From contig PWMT01000069.1 in the NCBI GenBank assembly GCA_003558085.1, positions 1 through 6,996 of the forward strand: 6,996 nucleotides of DNA, given 5' to 3'. This stretch comes from Methanobacteriaceae archaeon. Lineage in GTDB: Archaea > Methanobacteriota > Methanobacteria > Methanobacteriales > Methanobacteriaceae. The notes below the pieces were generated by a model. The model worked only from the letters and a program-made list of their open reading frames with translations. It did not search any database and had not been told where the DNA came from. Below, one piece after another: positions 938 through 6,996 of the stretch; the stretch's first letter is position 1, and each line of letters begins with the position of its first letter. The position numbers and the translations under genes were made by a program.

Positions 938-2086
938 TTATAATGATTTAAGCATGATGTCCATGATACTGGCTTTTTTTGATTTATATTTTGATCCGCC
1001 CATAAGCGGAATAGATGAACTTAAAAAGTCTTTATTAGCCCGATCAGTTATTTCCTTGAATATCATCTTATAGGCCGCACACTGATGATCCACCCCATCA
1101 ATTTCCATTTTACTGGTCTTTTTATCTATGGTTAAAGCGTTATAGGGACATCCTCCTCGGCAAAATTTAATGTATTTACAATCTGCACATTCTTTATCAA
1201 CCAGTTCCATCCATTTATGTAGTTTTTTCCAGGCCGGCGATCGAGAAAGTTCTTCCATACTGGGATGATCTTTTACATTACCCATTAAATATTCTTCCAT
1301 TCCTACAAAGCGATAGCAGGGATATATGCCTCCATCAGGTCCAACCGCAAAGGTATCACCCACACAATCAGCATAAGTGCATACCACTCCCCTCCTGACA
1401 AACACTCCCTTGCAGAGATGATCAATGTTTTTTATTTCAATTTCACCCATATGGGCTAAATACTGATCCAAAAGATATACCAATAAATCCCCATATTCTT
1501 CAGGAGATATAGACCATTTATCAGGATCTTCGCTACGTAAAGAGGGTAGTGCTGGATGTAATTTTAGATTTAAATTATTATCCAAAAAGAATTGGAAAAT
1601 TTCTTCCTTTAATTTAATCGAATAAGAAGTGAAGGTGCTAATAAAACTTACTTGAACACCTTTTTCCCGGGCTATTTCATAGCCCTGCATAGTTTTTTCA
1701 AAATATCCGTCCCCTCTTTGATGATCATTGATAGAAGGGGGGCCATCCAAACTGGAACCAATGGGAATATCATAATCTGCGAAAAGCTGGGCTAAATCAC
1801 TGTTCATAAGCCACAAATTAGTCTGAATAGCAAATGCAGGGTTTAAATGGCTTAATTCCTGAGCTAACAAAGGTAGAGTTTTCTGGTAATATTCATATCC
1901 TGCTAATAATGGTTCCCCTCCGTGAAAAGTGAAGGTTACTGGTTCATCCCTGAAGTCTTTCAACCATTGCACCATCTCTTCAATGATTTCCAGTTTCATT
2001 AAATCTGATTTTTTATCCACTCCCCAGCAGTAACTGCAATTAGATGGACAATCCATAGAAGGAATGATCATTACATGAAAGGCCAT
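938..2086 (-). CDS. Radical SAM/SPASM enzyme, putative peptide-modifying (TIGR04083-like, methanogen type)
   Basis: CxxxCxxC (CPSNCSYC), FHGGEPLL, IQTN and SLDGP motifs. SPASM cysteines CTYADC..GGIYPC..CADCKYIKFCRGGC..HQC. N-terminus MAFHVMIIPS resembles the TIGR04083 family as I recall it. AGGGTG Shine-Dalgarno upstream. Confidence 0.9.
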   Translation of the reverse strand: MAFHVMIIPSMDCPSNCSYCWGVDKKSDLMKLEIIEEMVQWLKDFRDEPVTFTFHGGEPLLAGYEYYQKTLPLLAQELSHLNPAFAIQTNLWLMNSDLAQLFADYDIPIGSSLDGPPSINDHQRGDGYFEKTMQGYEIAREKGVQVSFISTFTSYSIKLKEEIFQFFLDNNLNLKLHPALPSLRSEDPDKWSISPEEYGDLLVYLLDQYLAHMGEIEIKNIDHLCKGVFVRRGVVCTYADCVGDTFAVGPDGGIYPCYRFVGMEEYLMGNVKDHPSMEELSRSPAWKKLHKWMELVDKECADCKYIKFCRGGCPYNALTIDKKTSKMEIDGVDHQCAAYKMIFKEITDRANKDFLSSSIPLMGGSKYKSKKASIMDIMLKSL

Positions 2087-2411
2087 AGCAACACCCTAAA
2101 AATTTTATACTTACAAATTCTGTAAAGATGATATTTATTATCATAGCTATAATATTTATAGTTAAAACACCCTGCTAAACTAAAACTTTCATTAACTTTT
2201 ACTTAGTTTTATTAAAATAAGAACTAATTTTTATAGTCATAACTAAAACAATTTTTTTTAAGATTAATTCATGTTCCAGCTTAGTATATAATTCTAAAAC
2301 AAAGTTTTAAGATTAAACCTATCTAAGGGGCTATAAATATCTGTATATAATCAAATAAGTTAAAAATTAATTATTTCTATTAATAATGGTTAGATATGGT
2401 TAAATCTAATC

Positions 2412-2660
2412 AAAAAAAATAAGGAAATGCTTTTAATATACATCGAATCATAGCTTATACTCTAAATTAATATTCTAGTCTAGAATTCAGCCATACTATT
2501 AGATATCATGAATGATCCTTAAGATTGGTTATACATGGAGGTGTACAACATGGAGGTGTTGTAAAATGTTTTAAGGATTCATTCTTTTAATAATATTACT
2601 ATATCTAATCTTTTTTCGATGTATAAGGCCTTGAATTATTTTATTGGGGTTAAATAATTC
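2412..2660. ncRNA. Candidate structured non-coding RNA (strand uncertain, minus favoured)
   Basis: Nested inverted repeats: 2437-2447/2615-2625 (11 bp), 2498-2506/2601-2609 (9 bp), 2510-2522/2571-2584 (13 bp, 1 bulge). They enclose two hairpins with TGGAGG loops. A further hairpin lies at 2633-2641/2652-2660. A8 at 2412-2419 would be a U8 terminator on the minus strand. No credible ORF. Confidence 0.45.
2533..2559. repeat. Direct repeat ACATGGAGGTGT x2 (15-bp period), each copy a self-complementary hairpin
   Basis: Exact copies at 2533-2544 and 2548-2559. Stems TACA/TGTA (2532-2545) and TACAACA/TGTTGTA (2544-2563) surround identical TGGAGG loops. Confidence 0.9.
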
Positions 2661-2682
2661 TACATCCATATATCTAAAAACT

Positions 2683-2733
2683 CTTAAAAATAATTTTTCA
2701 CAAATTACACCCCATTTAGACCCAAATTAACCC
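2683..2733 (-). promoter_or_regulatory. Helically phased direct repeats next to a possible BRE/TATA element
   Basis: CCC at 2711, 2721 and 2731 (exact 10-bp spacing; CCCATTTAGA CCCAAATTAA CCC). CAAATTA occurs at 2701 and 2723. On the minus strand these are followed by GAAAAATTA-TTTTTAAG (TATA-like, 2690-2683). Confidence 0.4.
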
Positions 2734-2768
2734 TGATATTAATTAAATTATAAACTTAAAATTAAGCA

Positions 2769-3095
2769 TCAATTACGGGTAATTTTAAATAATATAGATA
2801 AAGCTACCAGTTGCACTATATTTATAAAACTCAAAGGGATAATCGGGAGATAAATCTGTTGAACCATCATATTTAAGGGATAAAATAACTGAATACCTAA
2901 AAAAATGGATGCTACGAAATTTTGAAGAAAAAGTAAAAAAGCAAAAACCATTAAACCCAGGGAAAACTTAGATTTTATTTCTTTATAAGTTTTAGTGTAC
3001 AACGTAATTAAAGCTAGTACCAGGGACATATTTAATATTCCTATAGCCAATGCCACGGCATTCAATAGATAATATTCTTCATTGCCAATTAACAT
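2769..3095 (-). CDS. Small membrane protein (about 3 TM helices), likely partner of the upstream winged-helix regulator
   Basis: Three hydrophobic stretches around YTKTYKEIKSKFSLGLMVFAFLLFLQN. Its ATG lies 1 nt after the regulator stop (TGAtATG), suggesting translational coupling. Confidence 0.8.
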   Translation of the reverse strand: MLIGNEEYYLLNAVALAIGILNMSLVLALITLYTKTYKEIKSKFSLGLMVFAFLLFLQNFVASIFLGIQLFYPLNMMVQQIYLPIIPLSFINIVQLVALSILFKITRN

Positions 3096-3096
3096 A

Positions 3097-3387
3097 TCAT
3101 TCCCTCTCTTTTTTCTTCAATTCACTCCAAATTTGATTAAAGGCTTCATAATTTTTTATCATAATATCTGAGAGAAAATAAATTTCCCCATACTTTTTAC
3201 CTTCAGTAGTTACTATTTTATTTTCTTCTAAAATTTTAAGGTGGTGTCTTATAGTTTTATAATTTAAATTAAGCTTTTCAGCTAATTGATTAGCATTATT
3301 AGGACTTTCATATAATTCCATAATTATTCGAGCCCGATTAGGACCTCCTCCAGATCCAGCGATTAACCACCAAAGTATTTTATTCAT
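3097..3387 (-). CDS. Winged helix-turn-helix (ArsR-like) transcriptional regulator
   Basis: [18 protein letters not shown]...[38 protein letters not shown] is an archaeal ArsR-like wHTH pattern. ATG 3387 follows GGGGTTGA and is preferred to the track start at 3399. Confidence 0.9.
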
Positions 3388-3472
3388 TTTCAACCCCAAT
3401 AAATTTTAAAGAGGTAAGTAATTAGAACATTTTTCATTTCAAATTACATATTAATGGCCATTATAATTGAAC

Positions 3473-3634
3473 TTAATCCTCTTTTTTCTTTGGTTTAAAT
3501 TCATATCCACATTCTTCACATATTATTCCTTTTGTAGTTGCATGAGCCCGATGTTCATCTTGAATTTTCCTTAAAACTTTTTTATCCGGGCATCCGCATA
3601 CTGGACATTTTTGCAGCAGTTCTTCCATTTTCAT
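3473..3634 (-). CDS. Cys-rich small protein, TIGR04165-like (two CxxCG motifs); putative substrate or partner of the radical SAM enzyme
   Basis: Not in the ORF track. Manual translation: MKMEELLQKCPVCGCPDKKVLRKIQDEHRAHATTKGIICEECGYEFKPKKKED* (53 aa), with CPVCG and CEECG motifs plus a fifth Cys. This matches the described methanogen peptide family found near TIGR04083 enzymes. Confidence 0.88.
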   Translation of the reverse strand: MKMEELLQKCPVCGCPDKKVLRKIQDEHRAHATTKGIICEECGYEFKPKKKED

Positions 3635-3837
3635 ATAATTAATGTTCAATTTAAATGCACATTAAATTTTTGGTATATGCTCTATAATGATTTATTGAAT
3701 TTTAAAATTTAATAAAGATTTTAAGAAAACCTTATTTAAGGATATGAATTGTAAAAAATAGCTTTTTATTATTAAATATTAACTGAATATGAAAAATTAA
3801 GTCTATCCCTGGCTTTACTGCCATTTAAAACTGGAAT

Positions 3838-3860: not shown

Positions 3861-4685
3861 TTAAAAGGGAGCAAATATGCCAATAAATACCAGCCAGGCC
3901 AAGGCTGTTTTAGCAATTAAGCTCAGCAAAATATATACTCTTTCACCATAGAGATAATCTTTCCACTTACCAATTCCTTTGTACTGCATTATCATGTTTA
4001 TTGAAAAAGTATTGAACATGATAAAGTAAATAAGCAGTGTTAAATAGACGAAAGTAGGTGGCTGTGTCTCCGCAGAACCCAGAGCAGCTATAAAGTAAGC
4101 AGCCATCACCACCCAGGGTGTGAATCCAGAAATACATCCTAAAAGGTATGGTGACCAGTCTGTCTTTTTAGGATACTGGTTAATCTTCTCCATGAGATAA
4201 CCAAACATGATCATCATAGCATTTAGAACAAATATCATCACCAGTGACCATACATCCCAGATCCCTAAAAATTGGGCTATAAGCACTATCATTATAGAGC
4301 TAGAGAATGCGTATTCATACCAGCGATAGGGATTCATTCCTTTTTTAAGATTTTCATTGTATTTTTTGTTTCTAAGAAAGGCAATCACGAAATGAGCTAT
4401 AGCAGATATTAATAGGAAGGAGGCTAAAATAACTCCTAAATTCTCCACAGTGAAAACTACTTGTGGATCTGGTATTACTTGAAAAGTAGGTGGGGTTAGT
4501 GTAACAATTTCAAAATCAAGATAAAAGGTGTATAGATCCCTACTCCACTCCAACCATAATCCCAAGATTACTAATAATATTCCTTGGAATAAGTGTAGCA
4601 TTCCTGCCCCAATATTGAGCTTTCTTAAACTCTTGAAACTTATGGGTGATTTGTCAATTAATTCTCTTCTCAATTCATTATCCAT
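3861..4685 (-). CDS. heR: Heliorhodopsin (HeR)
   Basis: Seven hydrophobic segments with a long loop after TM1. HeR signature residues: H31/Q34 (LHLFQG), H98 (SAIAHF), NPYRWYEYAFSSS (R121, counterion E124, S128), E166 (FGYLME), and YLYGERVYILLSLIAKTALAW with the Schiff-base lysine K259. Confidence 0.96.
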   Translation of the reverse strand: MDNELRRELIDKSPISFKSLRKLNIGAGMLHLFQGILLVILGLWLEWSRDLYTFYLDFEIVTLTPPTFQVIPDPQVVFTVENLGVILASFLLISAIAHFVIAFLRNKKYNENLKKGMNPYRWYEYAFSSSIMIVLIAQFLGIWDVWSLVMIFVLNAMMIMFGYLMEKINQYPKKTDWSPYLLGCISGFTPWVVMAAYFIAALGSAETQPPTFVYLTLLIYFIMFNTFSINMIMQYKGIGKWKDYLYGERVYILLSLIAKTALAWLVFIGIFAPF

Positions 4686-4834: not shown

Positions 4835-4872
4835 ATTAATAAAGGTTATATTAATTAATAGAGGTTATATTA
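4835..4872 (+). repeat. 19-bp tandem duplication covering the SOUL ribosome-binding site
   Basis: ATTAATAAAGGTTATATTA (4835-4853) and ATTAATAGAGGTTATATTA (4854-4872), 18/19 identical. Confidence 0.85.
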
Positions 4873-5432
4873 TGCCTACTGAAAGTCCCCAGTATAATGT
4901 AGAATATAAAGAAGGAAAATTTGAAATTAGGTTTTATCCGGGTTATATTTTAGCTCACGTAGATATAAAAGCTGATTTTGATAAAGCCCTAGGACAGGGA
5001 TTTGGTATACTGGCTGGTTATATTTTTGGAGATAATCAGGGAAAAGAGAAACTAGCCATGACCATTCCTGTCTCTCAAGAGGATTTATCTTCATCTAAGA
5101 ATAATTCTAGGTCCTCGGAAGCTAAAGAAGAAGAAATTCTAAGTAATATTCATCGTATATCCTTTATCATGCCTTCTAAATACGATTTAAAAACTCTTCC
5201 CCAACCGAATGATGATAGAATAAACTTCAAAGAAGTAAAAAAGGTTAGGATGGCCGTATTAAAATTTTCAGGAAGAGTTAATTCTACTTTGGCTTCGCGC
5301 AAAATTAATGAGCTTAAAGCTTGGATATTGGAGAAAGATTTTGACCCTAAATCTCCTTTTATAGTGGCCCAATATAATCATCCTGCAGTTCCTGGATTTC
5401 TCAGGAAAAACGAAATACAGGTTAAAATTTAA
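4872..5432 (+). CDS. SOUL heme-binding family protein
   Basis: SOUL-family motifs: E-x-P-x-Y, FEIRFY, GFGILAGYIFGDN, KLAMTIPV, ISFIMPSKY..TLPQPND, AVLKFSG, AQYNHP..PGFLRKNEI. GAGGT Shine-Dalgarno upstream. No signal peptide evident. Confidence 0.93.
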   Translation: MPTESPQYNVEYKEGKFEIRFYPGYILAHVDIKADFDKALGQGFGILAGYIFGDNQGKEKLAMTIPVSQEDLSSSKNNSRSSEAKEEEILSNIHRISFIMPSKYDLKTLPQPNDDRINFKEVKKVRMAVLKFSGRVNSTLASRKINELKAWILEKDFDPKSPFIVAQYNHPAVPGFLRKNEIQVKI

Positions 5433-6369: not shown

Positions 6370-6996
6370 ATTACGCGAAAATTATTTTTGAGTCTAATAT
6401 TAATAATTGGCCTAATAACCATGCTAAGTGTAAACGGAATCTACGCAGAAGAAACCGAAAACACCTGTCAAGAACTACAAACTGCAGATATCGGAGAAAA
6501 TGAAATAGAACTCAATGCTGAAGATGAACCACTACTAAAATATGCTGCTGGTGCTGAAACAGAAAATACATTAACCTCCACTGGCAATTCCTATAGCCTA
6601 GCCCAAATGCAAGATGCCTCAAACAGAGTTAGAAATTTCATCGAAAACAATAGAAGACTACCCAACTTTGTAACCATCAACAACCAACAAGTACAAATGT
6701 CTGACTTCCTACACATGCTAAGCACAACCACCATAAACTTGGACCAATTAAATACGGGTCGAATAACCCATTATAAGGTTGCTGCTCCCACCCACAGTCT
6801 AGACCAAATTAACAGGGGAAATATTCAAAAATCAGAATATTTACAACTTGCACAAGATATCAGAAATTATATAGAAAGTAATGGGAGGGCTCCACAGTCT
6901 ATCAGTTCCAGTCAAGGCCTGATTGGTTATGAATCTCAGATTTTTCTTTATTCTCGAATTGTATCCTTCCACCAGGCAAATGGAAGATTACCTAAT
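6370..6996 (+). CDS. Secreted pseudomurein-binding repeat (PMBR) protein, N-terminal part; runs off the window
   Basis: Not in the ORF track; frame is open to the window end. Signal peptide (I)TRKLFLSLILIIGLITMLSVNGIYA, an acidic linker, then three PMBR-like repeats: YSLAQMQDASNRVRNFIENNRRLPNFVTI (6592-6678), IQKSEYLQLAQDIRNYIESNGRAPQSI (6823-6903) and IGYESQIFLYSRIVSFHQANGRLPN (6922-end). Start codon uncertain (ATT 6370, TTG 6388 or ATG 6421). Confidence 0.88.
   Translation, partial: MTRKLFLSLILIIGLITMLSVNGIYAEETENTCQELQTADIGENEIELNAEDEPLLKYAAGAETENTLTSTGNSYSLAQMQDASNRVRNFIENNRRLPNFVTINNQQVQMSDFLHMLSTTTINLDQLNTGRITHYKVAAPTHSLDQINRGNIQKSEYLQLAQDIRNYIESNGRAPQSISSSQGLIGYESQIFLYSRIVSFHQANGRLPN

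Follow-up and report, generated by a model that had tools for sequence, protein, structure and literature searches.

A candidate anti-Shine-Dalgarno RNA behind a conserved promoter block upstream of a radical SAM gene in Methanobacteriaceae

The non-coding gap at positions 2412-2660 of the window, i.e. the whole 6,996-nt stretch of Methanobacteriaceae DNA analysed here, may encode on its minus strand a folded non-coding RNA of about 250 nt with anti-Shine-Dalgarno (anti-SD) loops, a reading built on predicted folds and genome comparison to which we give roughly even chances. The region is best read as specifying an anti-SD regulatory RNA, which may be an sRNA of its own or a leader subject to attenuation. 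An earlier note made from the letters alone had already proposed a structured RNA of this size. Each element that it described (stems, a pair of identical loops, side hairpins, TATA-like element, U8 tract) is present at the position it gave; its minus-strand reading, with a TATA-like start, anti-SD loops and a U8 end, is favoured, whereas its plus-strand decoy or sponge is not retained. The elements of the locus are as follows.

2684-2735, minus strand: promoter/operator block with 11-nt periodic repeats ATTTGGGTCTA / AATGGGGTGTA / ATTTGTGAAAA, then the BRE/TATA-like ATTATTTTTAA
2690-2683, minus strand: TATA-like element TTTTTAAG
2660-2662, minus strand: probable transcription start, 22-24 nt past the end of the TTTTTAA at 2684
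2633-2660, minus strand: 5'-terminal hairpin P1, 9 bp (GAAUUAUUU/AAAUAAUUC) with loop AACCCCAAUA, present in the MFE folds
2437-2625, minus strand: large multi-stem domain closed by an 11-bp perfect inverted repeat (2437-2447/2615-2625, 100% complementary)
2498-2506/2601-2609: 9-bp perfect repeat inside this domain
2510-2584, minus strand: inner hairpin P2, 13 bp plus one bulged base (arms 2510-2522/2571-2584), carrying the apex
2533 and 2548: starts of the 12-nt direct repeat ACATGGAGGTGT, spaced by 15 nt, which puts TGGAGG (plus) or CCUCCA (minus) in two apical loops
2533-2562, minus strand: tandem 15-nt duplication with two anti-SD units, CACCUCC at 2558-2552 and 2543-2537, loops CCUCCA
2449-2495, minus strand: side branch of 7 bp and 10 bp including the palindrome 2472-2486, seen in the MFE fold only
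2412-2419, minus strand: U8 tract (A8 on plus), a likely archaeal termination signal, giving an RNA that would measure about 243-250 nt
2123-2169, minus strand: island without differences in the close relative X5, containing TATAAATA (2160-2153), a candidate separate promoter of the radical SAM gene
938-2086, minus strand: downstream gene for a radical SAM/SPASM peptide-modifying enzyme (rSAM), TIGR04083 (NCBIfam 613.7 bits, cut-off 300; Pfam Radical_SAM and SPASM)
3473-3649, minus strand: Cys-rich peptide TIGR04165, the family partner of the rSAM enzyme (NCBIfam 71.5 bits, cut-off 60), heading a row of genes on the same strand

In the proposed mechanism, transcription would start at about 2661 from the promoter/operator block (2735-2684) and the RNA is predicted to fold into the hairpin 2660-2633 followed by a long hairpin domain, whose apex (2562-2533) would expose the two CACCUCC/CCUCCA motifs. 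Oligo-U stops archaeal RNA polymerase, and most transcripts would end at the U8 tract (2419-2412), leaving a stable RNA of about 250 nt. The 16S rRNA 3' tail docks on Shine-Dalgarno (SD) sites. The exposed loops may pair with the G-rich SDs of mRNAs (GGAGGUG/GGUG) and keep the 30S subunit off them, the mRNA of the adjoining downstream rSAM gene being a possible target.

Shuffle-controlled folding on both strands, proposed in the earlier note as a check, placed the minus strand far ahead of its shuffles. As minus-strand RNA, positions 2412-2660 reach -50.6 kcal/mol (z -5.12) and none of the 200 dinucleotide shuffles was as good, versus -49.6 kcal/mol and z -2.14 for the plus-strand RNA, which was equalled by 3 of 200; with mononucleotide shuffles the z-scores were -4.58 and -2.47, respectively. 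Seventy 249-nt segments drawn at random from the same genome, all with a GC content of at most 0.28 and scored with mononucleotide shuffles, had a mean z of -0.54 (sd 1.44), one of them reaching z <= -4.5 and five z <= -3. The segment of the inner hairpin alone (2504-2586) gave z -3.37 on the minus strand versus -3.45 on the plus strand (-17.2 vs -24.2 kcal/mol). The loop of P1 has a predicted probability of being unpaired of 0.95, and the defining trait of anti-RBS sRNAs, an unpaired loop complementary to the SD, is found twice in the form of CACCUCC, with predicted probabilities of 0.82 and 0.77 in the fold of the full 602-nt leader. On the minus strand of the window the U8 tract is the first run of five or more T past the predicted start. 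In eight of nine loci no such run occurs within 240 nt past the start, A5+ runs numbering 1-4 per locus, and no bacterial-type intrinsic terminators were found. The nine sequencing runs listed for the window are all DNA metagenomes.

The promoter/operator block provides the main evidence on the strand. The TATA-like element pointed out in the earlier note on the minus strand belongs to this 52-nt block, which is conserved across related Methanobacteriaceae genera and can be aligned to sequence preceding the rSAM orthologue in L030 (same genus), L031, L032, L034 and L035. It was found in 6 of the 20 upstream regions examined, the window counted, and also on the metagenome contigs L132 and L133 (2 of 22 loci checked). 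A scan for a 32-nt block pattern allowing at most 3 mismatches gave about 170 real matches, against about 5 for a reversed-pattern control, and detected the pattern in 84 of 314 family genomes with 1-7 copies each, before other genes too. The 1.86-Mb assembly that contains the window (G000) has a single match, on the reverse strand, which is the window's own site. With this block, transcription would begin near 2661, on the first base of the 5' hairpin, and the 5' hairpin of L031 and L032 starts at the same distance from the block. In L030, T runs are found at the position aligned to the U8 tract, ahead of a shared GATTAGATTT. With the conserved block, the homologous hairpins and the z-scores of the whole region all favouring minus over the plus alternative, the strand that the earlier note had left open is largely settled for minus.

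The block drives a protein gene in every other instance, which makes a plain long 5' leader a strong alternative, one that we regard as possible rather than probable. Such a leader would act in cis: the block would be the rSAM promoter, the transcript would carry a structured 5' UTR of 575 nt with the U8 tract as a conditional attenuator, and the loops would sequester the rSAM ribosome-binding site. All 27 other distinct instances of the block that were examined precede protein genes, the distance ranging from 22 nt to about 240 nt; the ATG in L108 and L119 lies exactly 22 nt past the TTTTAA of the block, which looks like a leaderless mRNA. Moreover, the element always lies upstream of the rSAM gene on the same strand, and the first anti-SD unit of the window, CAACACCU, can pair with the rSAM start region GGGUGUUG over 8 contiguous positions (7 Watson-Crick and 1 G-U). 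The apex of L031 and L032 holds, beside CACCUCC, a GGUGUU(U) that duplicates the rSAM SD region; the anti-anti-SD, anti-SD and SD parts of a switch are thus all present. Of the features expected of a leader or riboswitch, position and hairpin architecture are conserved and covariation is weak (2 of 16 pairs).

Several observations argue against the long leader. An oligo-U run as long as the U8 tract should stop most archaeal transcription, and the conserved island with TATAAATA, 67-74 nt before the rSAM ATG, resembles the gene's own promoter; none of the letters of this island (2123-2169) differs in X5, and replaced sequence lies on its flanks. The loops are about 450 nt away from the SD, and L030 and L032 have not kept the extended complementarity to the rSAM start, their pairing being limited to CACC/GGUG. 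A crude duplex scan over 3244 start regions of G000 ranked the rSAM start region 821st and showed no enrichment of neighbours. Within the same assembly ATGGAGGTG occurs at 11 sites, two of which are the element itself and only one of which precedes an ORF of at least 40 aa (C174:12473). Neither this search for extended complements nor the duplex scan of G000 yielded a convincing specific target.

Hairpins related to that of the window are found behind the block in other loci, starting 59-64 nt past it in L030, L132, L133, L031, L032, L035 and L102, and 97 nt past it in the window. Those of L030, L031, L032 and L102 have z-scores of -3.65 to -5.74. In L032 and L102 the sense strand folds better than the antisense strand owing to G-U pairs (z -4.03 and -3.65 vs -1.73 and -2.84). 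The stems of the relatives differ in sequence and CACCUCC is present in every apex. The inner hairpin P2 of the window is the homologue of the anti-SD hairpin of the relatives, and the comparison shows that a tandem duplication of 15 nt turned the single-loop form of related genera into that of the window. The earlier note had equated CACCUCC with the anti-SD of the 16S rRNA 3' end, and the motif indeed matches the 3' tail in the same-family genomes G027 and G028, which reads GGAUCACCUCCUU; these genomes were used because the 16S copy of the window's own genome is cut off at about 857. Of this 3' end, 9 nt (AUCACCUCC) recur in the loops of L030 and L031 and 7 nt (CACCUCC) in the window, where they are present twice. 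The anti-SD motif is specific to rSAM-linked leaders. Around the 27 other promoter copies, CCTCC occurs at 1.67 per kb downstream as well as upstream, i.e. without enrichment.

Sister modules carry GACCCCC on their predicted hairpin tips. The second module of the relatives is missing from the window, where it has been lost, and module content varies greatly among species: L033 is devoid of the module and L036 of the promoter block. When the family was scanned with the short pattern for P1 of the second module, 30 matches resulted, no more than with the reversed-pattern control, and the scan is thus uninformative beyond the known loci.

X5, a metagenomic relative about 90% identical to the window and the one close relative seen, shows where the element is conserved; the contig concerned is 13.5 kb long and covers 2050-2800. 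Positions 2501-2589 differ by 2 substitutions, both loops being kept and 2535-2561 unchanged. The TATA region is conserved, as is P1 apart from one inserted base. The adjoining stretch 2590-2627 accumulated 8 substitutions and 6 single-base indels; these indels frameshift the minus-strand ORF 2669-2571, and the conservation is therefore not due to coding. The 5' arms of the outer 11-bp and 9-bp stems, on which the earlier note had laid weight, have diverged by substitutions and indels in X5, their partner region (2396-2500) is replaced by 113 letters, and no counterpart of either stem was seen in other genera. Two of the changes in the 11-bp stem, C2621U and C2618U, would be compatible with wobble pairs, on the minus strand alone, provided that G2441 and G2444 are retained. 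The side branch 2449-2495 lies in the replaced stretch and consequently lacks comparative support.

Formal covariation, another check proposed in the earlier note, is weak. Double changes affect 2 of the 16 pairs of the anti-SD hairpin, and 49 of 500 shuffles scored as high. RNAalifold on a MAFFT alignment of five relatives gave only -2 kcal/mol, without a usable consensus because the 3' arms were misaligned. Among the 191 MFE pairs compared between close pairs of sequences, none showed a compensatory change, 4 had one-sided changes that keep the pair, 10 were broken and 4 gapped. In one of the close pairs the changes fall preferentially outside the base-paired positions (p 0.021), but the other shows no such preference (p 0.66).

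The covariation tests were not significant, which speaks for a region without function as RNA, made up of neutral palindromes in AT-rich spacer DNA that follows a real promoter, or of the remains of a decaying module in which CACCUCC is kept by descent. We regard this explanation as unlikely. The variable module content, with some rSAM loci having none, the absence from the window of the relatives' second module and the five AT-rich control windows at z <= -3 are also in its favour; against it, a single one of the 70 control windows equals the z-score of the full domain, the position of the hairpin relative to the promoter is fixed in five sequence types, the loop motif stays while the stems diverge, and X5 has 2 changes in the 89 nt of hairpin and apex as opposed to 14 in an adjoining 41-nt stretch.

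Searches by homology did not place the element in a described family. With Rfam 15 at E <= 1, the sole match in the window was ylbH (20.4 bits, gathering 50) at 3166-3226, outside the region, and eight related loci gave two weak unrelated matches, CRISPR-DR61 and snoZ103, in agreement with the earlier note, which had recognised no described family. The BLASTN search that it proposed, run with 2400-2700 against 60 relatives, returned no homologue and no collinear match, just short AT-rich chance matches. A covariance model (R1) was built from L030, L132 and L031 and run over 20 sources with filters off. It recovered the sequences it was trained on as well as their reverse strands, detected L032, L035 and L102 at 12.6-13.7 bits and missed the window's hairpin at E <= 10. 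The element 2412-2660 is single-copy in G000, the next-best BLAST match being 23 nt long; this and the lack of collinear matches in the relatives rule out a MITE or dispersed repeat, the outcome that the earlier note had named as contrary to its proposal.

It is improbable that the nested palindromes act at the DNA level by binding a dimeric regulator, such as an adjacent ArsR-family protein, as an operator or roadblock downstream of the promoter. Both the window and L030 do have an ArsR-type HTH gene two genes upstream, and other leaders of the same promoter type contain clear short palindromes CGAACNGTTCG. However, no ArsR gene was found at the loci of other genera, the 60-170 nt that separate the arms are far too many for an operator, and it is the unpaired loop motif that is conserved, the stem sequence differing among genera.

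Plus-strand readings (an SD decoy or a sponge for ribosomes, a GGA-loop RNA that would titrate a CsrA-type protein, mini-ORFs led by the two GGAGGUG sites, or a 20-aa Cys/Trp-rich rSAM substrate peptide, MILKIGYTWRCTTWRCCKMF, at 2512-2574) are very improbable, even if the inner hairpin is the more stable on that strand, GGAGGTG is followed twice by an ATG at suitable spacing and a small ORF lies near a peptide-modifying rSAM gene: the z-score of the whole region is only -2.14 there, a T6 run (2611-2616) lies downstream of the apex, no conserved promoter was seen on plus and the region is antisense to a conserved one, the start, length and frame of the small ORFs are not kept in relatives, and the family partner of the rSAM enzyme, the TIGR04165 peptide, is already encoded nearby. 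A CsrB/RsmZ-type sponge, which the earlier note had considered along with the SD decoy, was rejected: CsrA (PF02599) had no match in G000 (95.9% complete), control matches being obtained in E. coli, B. subtilis and T. maritima, and there are just two GGA loops. The apex ORFs (20-32 aa) were likewise rejected as coding sequences or RiPP precursors; they have no counterparts of the same frame or length, the X5 indels disrupt the minus-strand ORF and both X5 substitutions are non-synonymous in the plus-strand 20-aa ORF (T8K and C17W).

The anti-SD regulatory RNA proposed here can be compared to several known systems. Passages of a published account (PMC5867862) describe two sRNAs of M. mazei, sRNA154 and sRNA41, in which an anti-RBS sequence in a loop masks the RBS of the target and represses the initiation of translation, and state that the function of archaeal sRNAs is still poorly understood. 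Like these, the candidate would be an intergenic RNA of a methanogenic archaeon with a predicted anti-RBS loop; the likeness is one of description, and no similarity in sequence or structure was noted. Unlike these RNAs from Methanosarcinales, it has two identical loops that match the 16S tail itself and follows a conserved promoter that is present in multiple copies, in the neighbourhood of a TIGR04083 rSAM gene. To our knowledge, very few archaeal regulatory RNAs have a worked-out mechanism. Searches of the CC-licensed PMC and bioRxiv literature (Methanobacterium sRNA/anti-SD, dRNA-seq, TIGR04083/TIGR04165) found no description of this element, nor of any regulatory RNA of Methanobacterium-type methanogens.

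In staphylococci, RsaE and RNAIII pair with G-rich SDs through unpaired C-rich loop motifs, the motif being UCCC. These RNAs are bacterial and unrelated in sequence, with UCCC instead of the full CACCUCC, and we know of no archaeon that has their partner proteins. In bacterial leaders and riboswitch platforms, too, an anti-SD stretch is able to base-pair with the SD of the gene that follows, and the GGUGUU of L031 and L032 lies beside the anti-SD; in contrast to such platforms, the candidate is separated from the SD by about 450 nt, has no recognisable ligand-binding domain and no Rfam match, and shows a strong U8 and a likely second promoter between the loops and the gene. The motif is the same as in the 16S 3' tail (GGAUCACCUCCU), but in the predicted hairpin loop of a candidate small intergenic RNA and not in the ribosome. 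The two plus-strand hairpin loops with GGA recall CsrB/RsmZ sponges, which differ from the candidate in that it has only two such loops, no CsrA homologue beside it and comparative evidence in favour of the minus strand.

We also put forward, as a rather doubtful extension, a modular RNA family of Methanobacteriaceae behind the multi-copy promoter. Its members would be mimics of the 16S tail (AUCACCUCC, GACCCCC) that compete with the ribosome for SDs and may thereby couple a stress or nutrient regulon to the translation of strong-SD mRNAs, that of the TIGR04083 rSAM included; the tandem duplication of the window would be a dosage-doubled variant.

The principle itself would not be new, since the masking of SDs by C-rich loops is established. 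If real, the candidate, which is directly testable in cultured relatives, would represent a new family of anti-SD RNAs in a second order of methanogens, together with a defined promoter/operator by which a small regulon could be recognised in many Methanobacterium-like genomes. It would also provide a regulatory handle on an rSAM enzyme present in almost every methanogen examined, the TIGR04083 orthologue being found in 78 of 81 family genomes.

The window is contig C98 of an assembly of 1.86 Mb in 175 contigs. Its nearest protein relatives are Methanobacterium or Methanobacteriaceae MAGs, and its sequence is present in DNA runs from salt-lake and soda-lake metagenomes. The candidate structured RNA (2412-2660) lies in a gap within a row of minus-strand genes.

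Genes and other features of the window
3649..3473, minus: Cys-rich peptide of family TIGR04165, first in the minus-strand gene row
3399..3097, minus: ArsR-type HTH protein, after the peptide gene
3095..2769, minus: 108-aa protein without significant family match, after the ArsR-type gene
2768..2087, minus: 682-nt gap containing the candidate RNA, between the 108-aa protein gene and the rSAM gene
2086..938, minus: radical SAM/SPASM peptide-modifying enzyme (rSAM), TIGR04083, 613.7 bits against a cut-off of 300
after the rSAM gene in minus-strand order, minus: 176-aa protein with weak coiled-coil-type matches
4872-5432, plus: SOUL haem-binding-family protein, ordinary for the lineage
6388-6996, plus: pseudomurein-binding-repeat protein, ordinary for the lineage

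The TIGR04083 rSAM is near-universal among methanogens and ANME, and an orthologue was found in 78 of 81 family genomes. This maturase (938-2086, minus) and the TIGR04165 Cys-rich peptide (3473-3649, minus) form a pair, which in the window is split by the RNA gap as well as by the genes for the ArsR-type and 108-aa proteins; the peptide gene of L033, the rSAM-upstream locus of a relative, stands directly before rSAM. The window also carries an intact heliorhodopsin gene (Pfam PF18761, E 1.9e-93; 3861-4685, minus), in a methanogen from salt-lake/soda-lake metagenomes. Its start region contains a G6 Shine-Dalgarno-like run (AAGGGGGGUUUAAAUG), part of which complements the AACCCC loop in the candidate RNA's 5' hairpin.

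Inverted repeats, side hairpins, a TATA-like element and an A8/U8 tract had been described in the gap by the earlier note, and all lie where it had placed them. The two identical loops were likewise recovered; made by a 12-nt direct repeat, they result from a 15-nt tandem duplication of an anti-Shine-Dalgarno (anti-SD) unit, and both units are predicted unpaired (P 0.82 and 0.77) in the fold of the whole 602-nt leader. The proposal of a structured RNA gained support from folding of 2412-2660 against dinucleotide shuffles, with a minus-strand MFE of -50.6 kcal/mol (z -5.12, 0/200 shuffles as good) and a plus-strand MFE of -49.6 kcal/mol (z -2.14, 3/200). Mononucleotide shuffles gave z -4.58 for minus and -2.47 for plus. 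When 70 stretches with GC <= 0.28, drawn at random from this genome, were treated by this last method, their mean z was -0.54 (sd 1.44) and one reached -4.5 or lower, so the structure stands out without being one of a kind. The genome has a single copy of the sequence, which excludes a MITE, and a family match in Rfam was absent for the window and eight related loci.

Alignment of rSAM-orthologue upstream regions revealed a conserved minus-strand block at 2735-2684, just upstream of the candidate RNA, composed of three 11-nt periodic repeats of the type ATTTGGGTGTA and then GAAAAAYTAYTTTTAA. It is present in six of the 20 upstream regions examined (the window, L030 from the same genus, and L031, L032, L035 and L034 from other genera), in two of 48 further genome-contig loci, both duplicates of L034 and L035, and in two of 22 metagenome loci checked (L132 and L133). 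A search of 314 family genomes with a 32-nt pattern (<=3 mismatches) found it in 84, with 1-7 copies each, or ~170 real matches versus about five with a reversed-pattern control; the window's own genome has one match, the window's site. The block is oriented toward downstream protein genes in 27 other distinct instances, and at two instances (L108 and L119) an ATG follows its TTTTAA by exactly 22 nt, which is the layout of an archaeal TATA box ahead of a leaderless mRNA. Because of this spacing and orientation, the block is read as a putative promoter with operator. We infer a start at about 2661, which would be the first base of the 5' hairpin (2660-2633); in L031 and L032 this hairpin begins at an equal distance from the block. 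Conserved block and start geometry thus settle the strand question for minus, as far as sequence alone can, against the weak plus-strand leaning of the earlier note.

The promoter/operator type (32 nt, TTTGGGTGTAA-N2-TGGGAAAAACTAYTTTTAA) was not found in the largest genus sampled (0/103). Elsewhere it precedes genes for MVYD.. small membrane proteins, Cys-rich membrane or secreted proteins, an FtsX-like permease, a DUF2769 Cys-rich protein and NYN-domain proteins. In six instances (L104, L109, L113, L122, L124 and L125) the palindrome (A)CGAACNGTTCG(TA) stands once or twice between promoter and MVYD.. membrane-protein gene; it looks like the operator of a second, dimeric regulator. No CCUCC enrichment was detected in leaders behind the other promoter copies.

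A 13.5-kb contig from a lake-water metagenome run (X5), belonging to a ~90% identical relative of the window, was aligned piecewise to the gap.

Differences between the gap and the X5 relative
2628-2711: 5' hairpin, start and TATA region; two substitutions and one inserted base
2590-2627: diverged piece; 8 substitutions and 6 single-base indels
2501-2589: inner hairpin and apex; 2 substitutions, with 2535-2561 unchanged
2396-2500: diverged piece; 113 other letters instead
2357-2395, minus: island just downstream of the U8 tract; two differences
2170-2356: diverged piece; 195 other letters instead
2123-2169, minus: island with TATAAATA at 2160-2153; zero differences

Coding is ruled out as the cause of this conservation, since the X5 indels frameshift the minus-strand ORF 2669..2571 and both substitutions in a 20-aa plus-strand ORF are non-synonymous. 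The footprint supports the putative promoter, the 5' hairpin, the inner hairpin and the loops. The nested stems claimed earlier are all present in the window, and the inner hairpin (2510-2584) is conserved in X5, but the outer 11-bp (2437-2447/2615-2625) and 9-bp (2498-2506/2601-2609) stems are unsupported, their 5' arms being changed; this was judged from the 5' arms, whose partners fall outside the visible X5 alignment.

In relatives, a short 5' hairpin behind the block is followed by a long hairpin, which begins 59-64 nt past the block versus 97 nt in the window. The apex carries CACCUCC in every long hairpin compared, and the stems differ in sequence among lineages (5'/3' arms AUUAUGAAGAGCCC/GGGCUUCUUCAUAAU, AUUAUGAAGAAGUC/GACUUCUUCAUGAU and UAGAAUACUUCAGAAAA/UUUUCUGAGGUUUCUA in relatives, AAUGAAUCCUUAA/UUAAGGAUCAUU in the window). 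L030 and L031 have a longer form of this motif, AUCACCUCCA. At its 3' end, the 16S rRNA of two genomes from the same family reads GGAUCACCUCCUU; the copy in the window's own genome is truncated.

Folding z of the long hairpins (sense; antisense)
window, 2504-2586: -3.37; -3.45
L030: -5.74; -4.91
L031: -5.17; -5.52
L032: -4.03; -1.73
L102, another instance of the block: -3.65; -2.84

G-U pairs explain why sense folds better than antisense in L032 and L102. For the window's inner hairpin alone the strands tie in z, and plus is the more stable (-24.2 vs -17.2 kcal/mol).

Automated consensus folding on sequence-based alignments failed (-2 kcal/mol), and the window's hairpin escaped a covariance model built from three relatives. 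The anti-SD hairpin yielded a single ungapped alignment, of 3 sequences, in which two of 16 pairs changed on both sides; 49/500 shuffles were as good. The close pairs L032/L102 and L030/L132, with 191 MFE pairs, showed 0 compensatory changes, 4 one-sided pair-keeping changes, 10 broken and 4 gapped pairs, mostly in peripheral predicted helices. Substitutions were rarer at paired positions in one close pair (4% vs 11.6%, p 0.021); the other showed no significant avoidance (6% vs 7.3%, p 0.66).

Module content is fluid: relatives possess one or two copies of a second, RNA-like module (L030:1183-1281; L034:2936-3005; L032:2789-2866 and 2899-2984; L031:2878-2947; L128:1590-1674), which is missing from the window's genome. 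It comprises GUAACCA-N-UGGUUAU, a 7-bp hairpin that is UAACUA/UAGUUA in one genus, followed by a long hairpin formed by GCCCUUAG/CUAAGGGC, whose loop is often GACCCCC(C). Across relatives the 7-bp hairpin shows one both-side pair change, C-G to U-A; its covariation score was reached by 4/500 shuffles. L034 has the second module only, and L033 has neither the block nor any module. Copies of the second module follow this promoter type at the rSAM locus; one genus also has it ahead of a DUF2769 gene. Rfam gave no match for the module. The window's island 2357-2395 (minus) aligns with it, the hairpin being lost (UUUAACCAUAUCUAACCAUUAUUAAUAG).

Archaeal RNA polymerase is stopped by oligo-U tracts. 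Sense-strand T5+ runs are absent from the 240 nt past the predicted start in 8/9 loci, representing 4/5 independent lineages, L034 having two; A5+ runs number 1-4 per locus in the same stretches, although A and T are about equally frequent there. The U8 tract (2419-2412) is the window's first T run past the start, and at the corresponding position L030 too has T runs, ahead of a shared GATTAGATTT.

The best-supported reading is a putative non-coding RNA, about 250 nt long and read from the minus strand; an anti-SD regulatory role for it, with U8 as its main end point, we hold to be an even prospect. Through apical loops that resemble the 16S tail, it would base-pair to Shine-Dalgarno sequences and so keep the 30S subunit from binding, acting either in trans or in cis, the latter on the rSAM message. 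An uninterrupted run of 8 pairs is possible between the window's first anti-SD unit and the rSAM start region (GGGUGUUG); this extended pairing is not conserved in L030 or L032, the start region ranks 821/3244 in a crude duplex scan, and just one ORF of the genome is preceded by the complement of the extended loop.

A cis-acting leader of rSAM is a possible but doubtful alternative. In L031 and L032 the apex that holds the anti-SD also contains, next to it, GGUGUU, a copy of the rSAM SD region; this pairing of elements hints at a switch. Against such a leader stands the 47-nt island 2123-2169 (minus), identical in the X5 relative, flanked by replaced stretches and located before the rSAM ATG. 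It holds GGGTGTTTTAACTATAAATATTATAG, begins with GGGTGT as the distal block does, and is likely the rSAM gene's own proximal promoter, which would favour a separate U8-terminated RNA over a continuous leader. Absence of any RNA function appears rather improbable, and an element acting at the DNA level very improbable. Plus-strand readings, among them the CsrA-type GGA-loop ligand suggested earlier, are scarcely credible, CsrA not being found in the genome.

The M. mazei sRNAs sRNA154 and sRNA41 are archaeal precedents for anti-RBS action (PMC5867862). Known anti-RBS sRNAs share the proposed way of working, whereas the window's candidate RNA falls outside every described family; no description of it was found in the CC-licensed PMC and bioRxiv literature. 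Two by-products, the regulon of the conserved promoter/operator and the second RNA-like module, deserve study of their own.
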